Shown here piece by piece: positions 53,881 to 56,883 of a DNA stretch of 64,000 bases. The position numbers and the translations under genes were made by a program. Position 1 is the stretch's first letter. The number at the start of each line of letters is the position of its first letter. Where the stretch lies: assembly GCA_039809225.1 (NCBI GenBank), contig JBDHUN010000001.1, forward strand, positions 22,003 through 86,002, read 5' to 3'. Below the pieces are notes generated by a model. It did not search any database, was not told the origin of the DNA, and saw only the letters and a list, made by a program, of their open reading frames with translations. The stretch is from Candidatus Saccharimonas sp. GTDB lineage: Bacteria > Patescibacteriota > Saccharimonadia > Saccharimonadales > Saccharimonadaceae.

Positions 53881-53904
53881 ATGACTGATTTGAACGACCA
53901 AACT

Positions 53905-53929
53905 AAAAAGACACAAACTGTGTCTTTTT
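53905..53929 (+). terminator. Rho-independent terminator after the DUF1697 gene
   Basis: AAAAAGACACA-AAC-TGTGTCTTTTT hairpin. Confidence 0.7.
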
Positions 53930-53931
53930 AG

Positions 53932-54042
53932 TTTGGTGGACTTTAACGCGCAAGTCCGAACCTATTTTGAAGAAAGATGCTGATAAAAAACTTAGGTGCG
54001 TTGCGCCCCTGAGTTTTACTAAGAAAAAGGAATAATCGGTTT
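53932..54042. repeat. IR-A left arm (111 bp, perfect inverted repeat of 54817-54927)
   Basis: Reverse complement checked base by base against 54817-54927: 111/111 identical. Confidence 0.95.
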
Positions 54043-54154
54043 ACTAATATCAAAATTATGGAATTTTGACGATCTATTATTTACTTAAACCAGTATCGTA
54101 CAGCCACCGACAGAGATGGTAACGATGCCAAGGAAGTTATTTTTCTAAAATATA

Positions 54155-54183
54155 TTGACAAGTCAACAAACTTATGCTAATAT
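54155..54183 (+). promoter_or_regulatory. Near-consensus sigma-70 promoter with overlapping palindromes
   Basis: TTGACA (54155-54160), 17 nt, TAATAT (54178-54183). Palindrome TTGACAAGTCAA covers the -35. The perfect 16-bp palindrome TACACAAGTTTGTGTA (54191-54206) sits at about +1. Confidence 0.55.
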
Positions 54184-54321
54184 TAGATTATACACAAGTT
54201 TGTGTATGGACATTAAATAAATATCTCGGTCGGTTAAGTAAAGTTTGACTAGATTTTGTAAACTCTACTTATCCGGCTGAGATACAGGATCAAGGCCAAC
54301 GCTCTAGCAAAGGAGACTTCC

Positions 54322-54720
54322 ATGAGCGTACAGCACTACCGCCCCACCCAGACCGGTCGTCAGAGCGACAAGAAGCTGGTGGATGACATCGCGCGAGCGA
54401 TCATCCGCAATCACAATGTCGTGGCCGACCAGGTGGGCAACAACAACGGCTGGCAGGGCGATGTCGAGCAGCTTTGCCTGAAGAAGGCACTGTTGCTCAA
54501 CGGCCAGACCCTCGGTCGTGTCGTCATGGCCTTCCCGGAGGCCGACCTGTACGGAGTGCACTGCGGCACCTGGCTCGGCAAGTACGAGTCGGGGCCGTAT
54601 CTCCTCCAGCAGGTTGCGGCGACAGCTATCCTGTGGCGCATCCGGGTCATCCTCGGTGTCTGTGAGGACATCGCCGATGGCGACGACCGCCACATGGACC
54701 GCCTCCCGTGGGCGTCCTGA
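54322..54720 (+). CDS. Hypothetical 132-aa protein, compositionally foreign (high GC, strong GC3 bias)
   Basis: SD aaaggag 6 nt upstream of the ATG. Third codon positions are almost all G/C in this frame only. Several overlapping ORFs on both strands here are a high-GC artefact. No recognisable domain. Confidence 0.6.
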   Translation: MSVQHYRPTQTGRQSDKKLVDDIARAIIRNHNVVADQVGNNNGWQGDVEQLCLKKALLLNGQTLGRVVMAFPEADLYGVHCGTWLGKYESGPYLLQQVAATAILWRIRVILGVCEDIADGDDRHMDRLPWAS

Positions 54721-54816
54721 CCTTGTCCGTCCCCCAGTGTCCGCGCGAGAGCGTGGGCACTGGGGCCTACCCCAAAGGCATAAATGATTTAATGTTTTTG
54801 GGGTAGGTCTAACTTA

Positions 54817-54927
54817 AAACCGATTATTCCTTTTTCTTAGTAAAACTCAGGGGCGCAACGCACCTAAGTTTTTTATCAGCATCTTTCTTCAAAATAGGTT
54901 CGGACTTGCGCGTTAAAGTCCACCAAA
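54817..54927. repeat. IR-A right arm (111 bp)
   Basis: Perfect reverse complement of 53932-54042. Ends with hairpin GGACTT-N8-AAGTCC followed by ACCA. Confidence 0.95.
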
Positions 54928-54995
54928 AAGCGATTTTTCGGGAAATTGTCGCCCTTTCGGGCGATTTTTTCTTTGGCCGCGCAGAGCGCGAACCA
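54921..54995. repeat. IR-B left arm (75 bp, 74/75 identical to the reverse complement of 56726-56800)
   Basis: CACCAAAAAGCGAT(T/A)TTTCGGGAAATTGTCGCCCTTTCGGGCGATTTTTTCTTTGGCCGCGCAGAGCGCGAACCA. Includes a + oriented terminator hairpin (54948-54970). Similarity drops to about 65% beyond 54995. Confidence 0.9.
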
Positions 54996-55206
54996 AGGGT
55001 TTTTCAGGGAGGGAATGGAAAATTGCCACGCCGTTCGACGTGGTTTTTGTTCTTTGGTCGGCGAAAGCCGACAACTGCATTTTGTGATATTATTGAAGTG
55101 GACACAATCTAACTCGGGATAACTTTTTGTTTGGCTTTAATAGCCGTCTCGTGCAATTTGGTTATTCCGGATTGTGTCCAGCGAGGCGGCTATTTAAGTT
55201 GAGGGG

Positions 55207-56654
55207 GTGTGTATGCAACAGCCAGATCAAAAATTCACTTACTTTCTCTATGTCCGTAAATCTACCGACGTAGAGGACAAACAGGTTTTGTCCATTGAAG
55301 CGCAGATCGTGGAACTCAAAGAATTCGCACGGCGTTTGGAACTGCAAGTCGCCGGCATTTTTATAGAAAAGCAGACGGCGAAAAAGCCTGGTCGCCCTGT
55401 GTTTAATGAAATGCTACGCCGTATATCTGCCAGTAATGCTAACGGCATACTAGCATGGCTACCGGACAGGCTTTCTCGCAATTCAATAGATAGCGGGCAG
55501 ATAATCTATATGCTGGACGAAAATGTGCTAGGCGACTTGAAATTCCCGCATTTTTGGTTTGAAAACACGCCACAAGGCAAATACATGCTTGCCCACGAGT
55601 TTAACTCCTCAAAACAGTATGTAGACAATCTGTCAGTCAATACCAAGCGTGGTTTACGACAAAAAGTCCGCGCGGGTCATATTATCCAAGTATTGTGCCA
55701 TTTGGCTATTGCAACGATGTGCGGACAAAGACGGTGGCTAAAAACAAGAAAACCGCGCCGCTGGTGCGCCAATGTTTTGAGCTCTACGCCAAAGGCGACA
55801 AAACGTGTGGCGACATCGCGGACTTTTTGTTTACTAACAACGTGGCGACCAAAGGTCGCCGAAAAACCAAAAATGACCCGAAATCTGCGGGCGGTAAACG
55901 CTGGCACGAAACACGGGTCAAAAATATGCTTTCCAATATCTTTTACTACGGGCATTTTCTGTACGCTGGCGAAGTGCATGAGGGCAAACATCCACCAATA
56001 GTGGACAAAGCATTATTTGACCGCGTTCAAGTGGTTTTGGCTAGTCGCGGACGCGCCCAGAAACAAGCCACCACCCCACAACCACTCACAATGCTGGTGC
56101 GTTGCGCCAACTGTAATTGCTATGTTACTGGCTCGCACAAAGTTAAAAGCCAGAGAAATGGCAATGTGCACGAGTACACCTATTACCGATGTACGCACAA
56201 AAGTAAGACGGTGGCTTGTTCCGAACCAGAACTGCGCGAATATGCTCTTGCCAGCCAACTTGTGCCAATCGCGCGGTCATTTGCTATGCCGCAATATATG
56301 GGCGCGTTTATGCTCGCCAAACTAGACGAGGACGCACAAGTTGTCCAAGCCGACAACACCAAACTAATTGCCACGCACCGCGCCCGACTGGACGAACTGG
56401 CTGGCAAGAGTAAGCGGCTTTTTGATATTTACCTAGACGGCGACATTGACCAAAGCGATTACCAAGACCGCCGCGCCGAATTGATGAGCCGCAAAAAGTC
56501 GCTAGAGGAAAAAATAGAGCATGTCGCTGCTCGCGCTGACTTTTGGATTGAACCTATGCGCGAGTGGGTCAAAACAGCAATTTCACTCTGTGAAATTGAC
56601 GAAAAACCCCACACCAAGCCTTGCGCGAGAGTTTACGCAAAATTGACGGATTGA
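55207..56654 (+). pseudogene. Large serine recombinase, split by a -1 frameshift near 55678
   Basis: ORF1 carries the resolvase catalytic domain (YVRKSTDVEDKQVLSIEAQ, LAWLPDRLSRN). ORF2 (from 55695, frame -1) carries PFGY, the recombinase domain (W..RVKNMLSNIFYYG), a Zn-ribbon (CANCNC..YYRCTHK) and a coiled coil. Confidence 0.8.
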
Positions 56655-56725
56655 ACCTGCTGCTGAAAAACAAAAAAGTCGTTGCAAGCAACGACCAATT
56701 TCCCATCTCCCCCCAAGAAAACATC

Positions 56726-56800
56726 TGGTTCGCGCTCTGCGCGGCCAAAGAAAAAATCGCCCGAAAGGGCGACAATTTCCCGAAATATCGCTTTTTGGTG
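56726..56800. repeat. IR-B right arm (native 3' flank of tRNA-Leu(GAG))
   Basis: Reverse complement of 54921-54995 with one mismatch. Overlaps the tRNA CCA end (56796-56800). Confidence 0.9.
56751..56773 (-). terminator. Rho-independent terminator of tRNA-Leu(GAG), with a second one at 56672-56695
   Basis: Minus strand: TCGCCC-TTTC-GGGCGA then TTTTTT. Further downstream GTCGTTGC-TT-GCAACGAC then TTTTTT. Confidence 0.65.
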
Positions 56801-56883
56801 CACTGAAGAGGACTTGAACCTCCACGGCCGCAATGGCCACCAGCCCCTCAAGCTGACGCGTCTACCAATTCCGCCACCAGTGC
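56796..56883 (-). tRNA. tRNA-Leu (anticodon GAG)
   Basis: Hand-folded cloverleaf. Acceptor GCACTGG/TCAGTGC, D-arm GCG-GAATTGGTAGA-CGC, anticodon stem TCAGC/GCTGG with loop TTGAGGG. Long variable arm, T-arm GGAGG-TTCAAGT-CCTCT, encoded ACCA end. Confidence 0.9.

Follow-up and report, generated by a model that had tools for sequence, protein, structure and literature searches.

A putative serine-recombinase element at a tRNA-Leu gene end in Candidatus Saccharimonas, with an internal inverted copy of its attachment region

We analyzed a stretch of 64,000 nucleotides of Candidatus Saccharimonas sp. (contig JBDHUN010000001.1, positions 22,003 to 86,002), hereafter called the window, in which two 111-bp inverted repeats (the arms) enclose a cassette with an open reading frame (ORF) of 132 codons, ORF132. 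To the right of the cassette follow a gene for a large serine recombinase (LSR) and a tRNA-Leu(GAG) gene (Table 1). A first-pass annotation, made from the letters alone, had described the arms as exact reverse complements, and this was borne out: all 111 of 111 positions are complementary, 774 nt lie between the arms, and the match is sharply bounded on both sides, the next ten bases outward as well as inward being different. BLAST of the arm against the window disclosed these two copies only, which speaks against a common dispersed repeat. The source sample, SRR27379524, matched the window at 100%. All components that had been listed for the cassette (promoter, palindrome, leader hairpin, the 132-codon ORF, two hairpins and terminators) were found again, and its description as a self-contained foreign module was upheld; promoter, ORF and terminators all reside within the arms. 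The recombinase gene reported 280 bp away is also present. It belongs to the large serine recombinases by its domains PF00239, PF07508 and PF13408 (resolvase, recombinase and zinc ribbon) and gave remote sequence matches to the A118 integrase structure. The gene is frameshifted; the frameshift near 55680 is common to the related strain L023. In the window sequence tested, Rfam models matched three tRNAs only.

A second pair of inverted repeats, which was absent from the first-pass annotation, surrounds the recombinase gene. Its members, termed B and B′, share 89% identity over 109 nt and 98.7% over the first 75 nt. B shares 11 nt (GTCCACCAAA) with the right arm, B′ borders directly on the 3′ end of tRNA-Leu(GAG) (...GTGCACCA), and the arm pair and the B/B′ pair meet at CACCA, a sequence resembling a tRNA end. 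The same core occurs in direct orientation, as TGGTG, at the two outer ends of the whole arrangement. We concluded from this layout that the window probably carries an integrative element of the LSR type, 2,862 bp in size (53939-56800), which would be inserted into the 3′ CCA end of tRNA-Leu(GAG) and divided by an internal inverted copy of the attachment region into a cargo and an LSR compartment. From left to right, the order would be native tRNA trailer, left arm, cargo, right arm, CACCA, B, LSR, B′, TGGTG and tRNA body.

The neighboring recombinase had been suspected to be relevant to the arms, and this was upheld; the arms are copies of the 3′ end of its gene. B′ contains the codons for approximately the last 45 LSR residues. 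Across the TGGTG core, the LSR frame runs on into the outer 45 nt of each arm, which supply a conserved tail of 14 residues, a stop and a terminator. In the reconstructed junction of B′, core and left arm the frame ends with ...KYRFLVDFNAQVRTYFEERC followed by two stops; the join from B′ to the arm thus reads ...KYRFLV-DFNAQVRTYFEERC, 14 codons up to the double stop. The internal copy, composed of right arm and B, yields the same open tail on the minus strand. At the related locus L040 the reconstructed junction ends with ...FLVDFYNQARTHFERNC, and its 14-residue arm-encoded end is identical to that of public proteins such as P0120. Peptides of the class F-Y-x-x-[A/V]-R-T-x-F terminate ten of the 120 closest LSR clusters, and most of the other clusters run into reverse-complemented tRNAs of many kinds. 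Differences between arms often affect third codon positions and are synonymous, and the motif ARTxF is kept (as ARTYF) in the very divergent arm of L045. Judging from the continuous frame and the terminator-like hairpin after the arm-encoded stop codon, the arm is the natural 3′ end and terminator of the LSR gene when the element ends are joined. Public data also contain LSR proteins whose sequence runs from B′ into an arm rather than a tRNA (P0120, P0133, P0150, P0177 and P0234, the latter on a contig of 5,086 nt, among others); their junctions could derive from an excised circle, from a flipped recombinase compartment or from a mis-join.

Near-perfect arms also flank this cassette in no fewer than four further assemblies (Table 1). 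Both repeat pairs were found at L040 and L045. The arm and B/B′ pairs of L040 overlap by 7 nt; those of L045 overlap by the 5 nt AGCCA, the own end of its tRNA-Gln, and TGGCT stands at both ends of that element in the same direct orientation as TGGTG in the window. The target is the 3′ end of a tRNA in the window, in L040 and in L045. The cargo of L045 comprises a short-chain dehydrogenase gene and a gene of the ornithine-cyclodeaminase family but no ORF132, and its recombinase is 66% identical to the L040 enzyme; altogether, the double-repeat elements span recombinases that are 66-72% identical. B of L040 and B of the window share 78% identity despite the different tRNAs, which argues that B/B′ belongs to the element and not to the trailer of the tRNA. 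The recombinase gene or its upstream region likewise comes after the ORF132 cassette in L025 and L039. The recurrence of this arrangement in L040, L045, L025 and L039 indicates that the link between cassette and recombinase is no coincidence, and the compartment bounded by the arms is, as far as it can be read from these sequences, a cargo slot.

The arms are 98-100% identical within an element, 84-85% identical between L001 and L024, and 61-63% identical between the window and either of these loci, while the ORFs are 89-95% identical. On the basis of these alignments the arms evolve in concert, which supports the earlier view that an active process keeps them identical. The left arms of L001, L024 and L032 share one origin. 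A single origin for all left arms is unproven, since the spacers between left arm and promoter of the window and of L001/L024 could not be aligned. The left arm of L032 has decayed, the inner 41 nt being left at 90% identity, and L002 possesses a right arm only.

These data can be combined into a model in which the attachment core would lie inside the LSR reading frame, 15 codons ahead of the natural stop, so that B′ would encode the tail of the enzyme and the arm its last 14 residues, the stop and the terminator. Integration, with a crossover at the CCA core, would exchange the native LSR ending for tRNA-derived codons and would split one copy of arm, core and B into the two element ends. The hairpin at 53897-53937 would then be the old, displaced trailer of the tRNA, and presumably it also terminates the DUF1697 gene; terminator-like hairpins directly outside the left arm were likewise seen in L039, L024, L041 and L045. 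The second copy of arm, core and B would stay internal, inverted and intact, and would thereby create the cargo slot and the LSR compartment, each bracketed by repeats. Arm identity may be maintained by gene conversion, in which one copy corrects the other. The terminators, which face inward, would insulate both compartments against transcription from outside, and the long repeats would predispose each compartment to precise deletion between short flanking direct repeats. As the LSR gene of the window is a pseudogene, the element at this site is probably a recent fossil.

Loss of the cargo was observed in the near-identical strain L023, whose sequence is 99.9% identical to the window left of the cassette and approximately 99.9% identical on the right, except for a divergent patch of about 100 nt. 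L023 lacks 1,020 bp including the cargo module, and a 9-nt direct repeat (8/9) lies at the endpoints. The missing DNA includes the 3′ half of the 19/19 hairpin, the 5′ half of which stays in the flank. Since an insertion would have needed 14 nt exactly complementary to the target, the junction makes a deletion far more likely than a pre-insertion site. In bacteria, spontaneous excision is known to be efficient where long inverted repeats are combined with short direct repeats (PMC5576700). The L023 contig stops at window position 56557, ahead of the site of the second frameshift. L001 looks like the converse loss, its recombinase compartment being gone.

Several observations weigh against the proposed element. 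ORF132 cassettes without a recombinase within 6 kb were found in L001, L002 and L032, and L023 harbors an LSR gene without arms; we take these for products of decay, although they could be independent states. Complete double-repeat elements were examined in three cases only, whereas the recombinase family numbers thousands of clusters. LSR ends joined to an arm came solely from proteins on contigs of at most 5.1 kb, where mis-joins through the repeat are possible. An uninterrupted tRNA-Leu(GAG) site, i.e., an empty bacterial attachment site (attB) for the whole element, was not found among the retrieved loci, and at the core no dyad symmetry typical of serine-integrase attachment sites was detected beyond chance. 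The outer boundaries of the element are placed by the core repeat and by analogy.

One reading raised in the first-pass annotation was that the cassette is an invertible segment, flipped by the recombinase or by RecA, which would act as a phase-variation switch altering expression. Of the marks of an inverton, inverted repeats and a nearby recombinase are present; the repeats adjoining the recombinase are long and perfect, the core copies flanking each compartment are mutually inverted, and the concerted evolution of the arms implies recombination between the two copies. Inversion by way of terminal inverted repeats also has a precedent in bacterial insertion sequences (PMC3004938). A flip of the cassette, however, would change little, because the arms enclose the promoter, the ORF and the terminators, and each arm contains an inward-facing terminator-like hairpin. 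Cargo and recombinase are co-oriented in all five readable layouts (window, L039, L040, L025 and L045), wherever a tRNA is seen, ORF132 is convergent with it, and the assemblies of these five loci and of L001 show a single orientation of the cargo relative to recombinase or tRNA. Moreover, according to PMC3783163, serine integrases normally do not recombine two sites of the phage attachment (attP) type. Inversion of the cassette was thus not supported and appears unlikely; inversion or excision on the recombinase side is possible, given the public recombinase genes that run into an arm rather than a tRNA. The arms of the window are perfect although its recombinase is dead, which speaks against a flip by this enzyme and would suit repeats that are a neutral by-product of one ancestral inverted duplication of the recombinase 3′ region, kept by gene conversion and without a role. 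Gene conversion alone can keep inverted repeats, as is established for the palindromes of organelles and sex chromosomes, and the decayed left arm of L032 would fit as well. Such neutrality is nevertheless improbable, as the double-repeat design persists across the diverged recombinases with differing cargo, elements with an intact recombinase have B/B′ at 100% identity and those with a broken one a decayed B/B′, and the internal copy retains an open frame for the tail.

The first-pass annotation had also considered a foldback or terminal inverted repeat (TIR) passenger of 996 bp, and we extended this to a non-autonomous transposon of approximately 1 kb that is moved by an unlinked transposase, e.g., of the IS200-like Y1 type, with the recombinase being a bystander. 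Homology of the copies at different loci indeed stops at the outer arm ends, one strain (L023) lacks the cassette, Y1_Tnp genes are situated beside or inside the related loci L024 and L039, and palindromic hairpins occur at the arm ends in the window, L024 and L039. The earlier remark that a target-site duplication is missing holds for the window, and none was seen in L001 and L039/L041 either, the 8/9 repeat being better read as deletion endpoints. The delimitation to 996 bp proved too narrow, however, if the cassette serves a larger recombinase element as its cargo compartment. The arms are the 3′ end of the recombinase gene itself, neither arms nor hairpins are dispersed in the window, no Y1 transposase is encoded there, and L045 combines the same kind of arms and an adjacent recombinase of the same family with a different cargo. 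For these reasons we regard a passenger transposon as highly improbable. An element of the REP/REPIN-RAYT or IS200/IS605 kind was rejected too, as the window is devoid of Y1_Tnp and the hairpin motif occurs once only. An assembly artefact in the form of a chimeric fold-back join had been another suggestion; some assemblers create long inverted repeats of perfect identity, and L022, a short-read contig, breaks off 30 nt inside the left arm. The repeats, however, enclose unique DNA and possess unique flanks on both sides, and independent assemblies from different samples exhibited this layout although their arm sequences differ, and in two of them the arms have one or two mismatches. This refuted the artefact, which we regard as virtually out of the question.

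Some further origins of the arms were discarded. A GGTTCGA sequence resembling a T-loop gives the arms the look of a degenerate tRNA, but it corresponds to the codons for A/V-R-T of the arm-encoded peptide, and tRNA models miss the arms. Intramolecular replicative transposition was dismissed because the junction sequences, read by eye, did not disclose an inverted-duplication signature, and fold-back priming because no microhomology was seen in the same way at the inner arm boundaries. A psRNA14 match at the start of the arm was far below the Rfam threshold.

Returning to the integrative element, it is conceivable, albeit doubtful, that the internal copy of arm, core and B is a functional spare 3′ end of the LSR gene, so that the state of the element decides which of two isoforms of its recombinase is made, and that the arm-bounded slot is a general plug-in site for cargo in a very large, undescribed family hopping between tRNA ends in Saccharibacteria. 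Integration would replace the 14-residue C-terminus (...FYNQARTHF...) by tRNA-derived codons, whereas the native end would return once the gene body is linked to an arm again, either by excision or because the recombinase compartment inverts between B and B′. The two forms of the L040 enzyme would end with ...FLVRVRRL and ...FLVDFYNQARTHFERNC. If true, this toggle would constitute a built-in control of directionality or activity that needs no separate directionality factor.

Among known systems, the element shares traits with serine-integrase elements and prophages, which reportedly include tRNA-targeting islands, the tycheposons: an enzyme of the LSR family, insertion into the 3′ end of a tRNA, a short identical core at the ends, cargo and a restored tRNA end. 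It differs from them by the core lying inside the recombinase reading frame, by a second, inverted copy of the attachment region of about 210-295 bp, which gives two long perfect inverted-repeat pairs, by the tiny size of such elements, about 2.9-3.9 kb, and by the occurrence of the same recombinase lineage at many different tRNAs; a directionality factor was not identified. In SSV1-type archaeal elements, attP resides within the integrase gene, the enzymes are tyrosine recombinases and the gene is split near its middle. There, too, integration interrupts the recombinase frame, and the integrated and free forms encode different proteins. Here, in contrast, the enzyme is a serine recombinase, the exchange would concern only the last 15 codons, and the element retains a spare inverted end of the gene. 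The Gin/G segment of Mu, Cin of P1 and the R64 shufflon are inversion systems that swap protein C-termini. The repeats at the present locus are similarly placed so that an inversion would join the gene body to alternative 3′ ends, and a serine recombinase is encoded at the locus; yet the gene body itself lies between the repeats, the affected gene is that of the recombinase, the enzyme is a large one of the integrase type rather than a small invertase, and we deal with a layout in which inversion was not observed. In the yeast 2-micron plasmid and in chloroplast genomes, two long inverted repeats separate two unique segments. As a circle, the element would likewise consist of two inverted copies and two unique segments, one of which encodes a recombinase with its site in the repeat, but it has no replication functions, is integrative and of the serine type, and its isomerization is hypothetical. 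Precise excision of Tn10 and Tn5 is stimulated by inverted repeats and short direct repeats. This process and DIRex (PMC5576700) have in common with our data that a segment bounded by repeats is cleanly lost, which matches the 1,020-bp gap of L023 with its 9-nt repeats, although the direct repeats are fortuitous here (8/9) and not a duplication made by a transposase. A literature search on Saccharibacteria and on serine recombinases did not yield any such design, which is weak evidence of absence. By its enzyme, tRNA target and cargo habit, the element belongs among the serine-integrase integrative elements; it is set apart by the core inside the recombinase gene, the spare inverted attachment copy and the paired brackets of long perfect repeats.

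To our knowledge, few mobile elements have been described for Saccharibacteria and other ultra-small episymbionts, and very few genetic tools are at hand. An element of this kind, compact at about 3 kb and having a defined slot for cargo and attachment sites that can be read from the sequence, would account for some of the gene turnover between strains in these reduced genomes and would offer a natural integration vector for them. It would also add serine integrases of unusual design, in which the core lies in the gene of the enzyme and a spare inverted end of that gene is retained, and would illustrate how long inverted repeats stay perfect over long periods while easing the deletion of each compartment. 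The recombinase family is very abundant, with 7,967 of 8,000 scored candidate protein clusters matching below E = 1e-40. C-terminal read-throughs place it at the ends of many different tRNA genes.

Table 1. Features of the locus (window positions) and repeats of related loci
Feature	Position	Strand	Remarks
Perfect hairpin with 19-bp stem, left of element	53897-53937	.	putative displaced native trailer/terminator of tRNA-Leu(GAG)
Left copy of 9-nt (8/9) direct repeat, ACTAAAAAG	53902-53910	+	1,020-bp deletion endpoint
Left arm, 111-bp inverted repeat	53932-54042	+	inverted-repeat and base-by-base comparison
Core copy 1, TGGTG	53934-53938	+	direct repeat of 56796-56800; reverse complement of tRNA CACCA end; putative crossover region of left attachment site (attL)
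Arm-encoded end of recombinase frame (DFNAQVRTYFEERC, then stop)	53939-53983	+	in frame with tail via join of B′, core and left arm
Terminator-like hairpin and T-run inside left arm	53995-54017	+	mirrored copy in right arm faces inward
Cargo promoter TTGACA-17-TAATAT, extended -10 TG	54155-54183	+	conserved in L001, L002, L024
Palindrome, 8-bp arms, at transcript start	54190-54207	+	one compensatory change
Leader hairpin of 5′ untranslated region (5′-UTR), conserved, 63 nt	54222-54284	+	G-U pairs and compensatory changes in four diverged sequences
ORF132, cargo gene, 132 codons	54322-54720	+	small all-helical protein, unannotated family
Two hairpins behind ORF132	54732-54765, 54766-54807	+	first conserved in all close relatives
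Right arm, 111-bp inverted repeat	54817-54927	-	with B on minus strand, putative intact spare recombinase 3′ end
B, left member of second inverted-repeat pair	54917-55025	+	inverted copy of DNA for recombinase C-terminal tail; plus-strand terminator-like hairpins
Core copy 2, CACCA	54921-54925	+	internal, inverted relative to copies 1 and 3
Right copy of 9-nt (8/9) direct repeat, ACCAAAAAG	54922-54930	.	1,020-bp deletion endpoint
Terminator-like site in B	54948-54965	+	hairpin scan
Terminator-like site at B end	55025-55044	+	hairpin scan
LSR gene, pseudogene	55207-56806	+	two frameshifts, reads in three frames
B′, right member of second pair	56696-56804	-	plus strand encodes recombinase tail (...PQENIWFALCAAKEKIARKGDNFPKYRFLV)
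Core copy 3, TGGTG	56796-56800	+	equals CACCA 3′ end of tRNA-Leu(GAG); putative right attachment site (attR)
tRNA-Leu(GAG), putative integration target	56796-56883	-	tRNA models, Rfam
L001			arms 105 nt, 98%; right arm directly abuts tRNA-Gly(CCC)
L024/L025			arms at least 98 nt at 100%; 178 nt at 97% with both contigs joined
L039			arms 105 nt, 100%
L040			arms 107 nt, 99%; B/B′ 138 nt, 100%; tRNA-Gly(GCC); intact 519-aa LSR
L041			arms 107 nt, 99%
L045			arms 167 nt, 100%; B/B′ 132 nt, 100%; tRNA-Gln(TTG)

Within the cassette, the palindrome at the transcript start could be an operator or a 5′ RNA hairpin, and the leader hairpin may be a regulatory RNA element; Rfam did not disclose a credible family for the latter, mir-2797 being far below threshold. 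The hairpin at the inner side of the arm-encoded stop (53995-54017) is presumably the natural terminator of the recombinase gene. ORF132 has 64% GC and 84% GC at third codon positions (GC3), compared to 49% GC for the window. Its product did not match any entry of Pfam, PHROG, PADLOC or NCBIfam. The AlphaFold model is all helical with a predicted local distance difference test (pLDDT) score of 74 and did not match any fold in the PDB or among viral folds. ORF132 belongs to a small, unannotated family that occurs in Saccharimonadales assemblies. An exhaustive profile search yielded 83 cluster representatives, ten of which were scanned against Pfam with zero matches. A scan of the genome collection gave only three distant ORF132 loci, and a metagenome scan eight loci, two of which were useful. 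A role of ORF132 as recombinase directionality factor was set aside, since the slot of L045 holds metabolic genes and ORF132 persists without a recombinase. An origin from a phage or plasmid was rejected because no DNA match was found in phage or plasmid collections; viral contigs did not match the leader motif (searched as DNA pattern), ORF132 or the recombinase.

The base composition of ORF132 recurs in its family. In six of seven loci measured, the genes have 61-66% GC and 78-87% GC3 in host loci of 45-57% GC; the homologue of L016 is lower (56% GC, 64% GC3). The homologues with high GC3 (window, L001, L002, L006, L010 and L014) always lie behind an AT-rich leader, which holds true down to approximately 50% identity. 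Two large proteins, P0024 (2155 aa) and P0082 (1063 aa), matched the ORF132 profile in 14 and 7 stretches, respectively, indicating that the ORF132 domain also occurs as a tandem repeat.

Near-identical recombinases (P0142-P0154 and others) were seen to continue into at least six different reverse-complemented tRNAs, so that one element lineage evidently occupies many tRNA genes. Many contigs with such read-throughs are about 2-3 kb long, as is expected of a repeated element. Upstream of the recombinase start, the window contains a 10-nt inverted repeat whose halves are approximately 60 nt apart (55101-55113 and 55173-55185, GGACACAATC / GATTGTGTCC). At the equivalent place L025 and L039 have another complementary pair (GCAACCAAC / GTTGGTTGC) around the conserved GGCTTTAATRGCCGTCT. 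This arrangement hints at a binding site or a structured leader.

The right flank of the L024/L025 cassette (L025:740-860) contains fragments of tRNA-Gly(GCC) in both orientations, namely a 19-nt piece of the T-arm on the minus strand and a 3′ half ending with CGCACCA on the plus strand, just before B-like terminators. These fragments look like scars of repeated recombination at that tRNA. Genes for IS200-like Y1 transposases lie beside the left arm of L024 (L024:62-652) and interrupt the recombinase gene of L039 (L039:3855-4427); thus, a second kind of mobile element hits these loci.

Between the window and L023, 31 of the 33 differences fall within about 100 nt encoding the coiled C-terminal region of the recombinase (56427-56531). 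The amino acid changes are conservative, and the patch looks like recombination from a divergent allele. Upstream of window position ~53192, L023 has an Amidase_2 gene (L023:1-601) in place of the gene for a solute-binding protein, which is either a second rearrangement breakpoint or the mark of a chimeric low-coverage contig.

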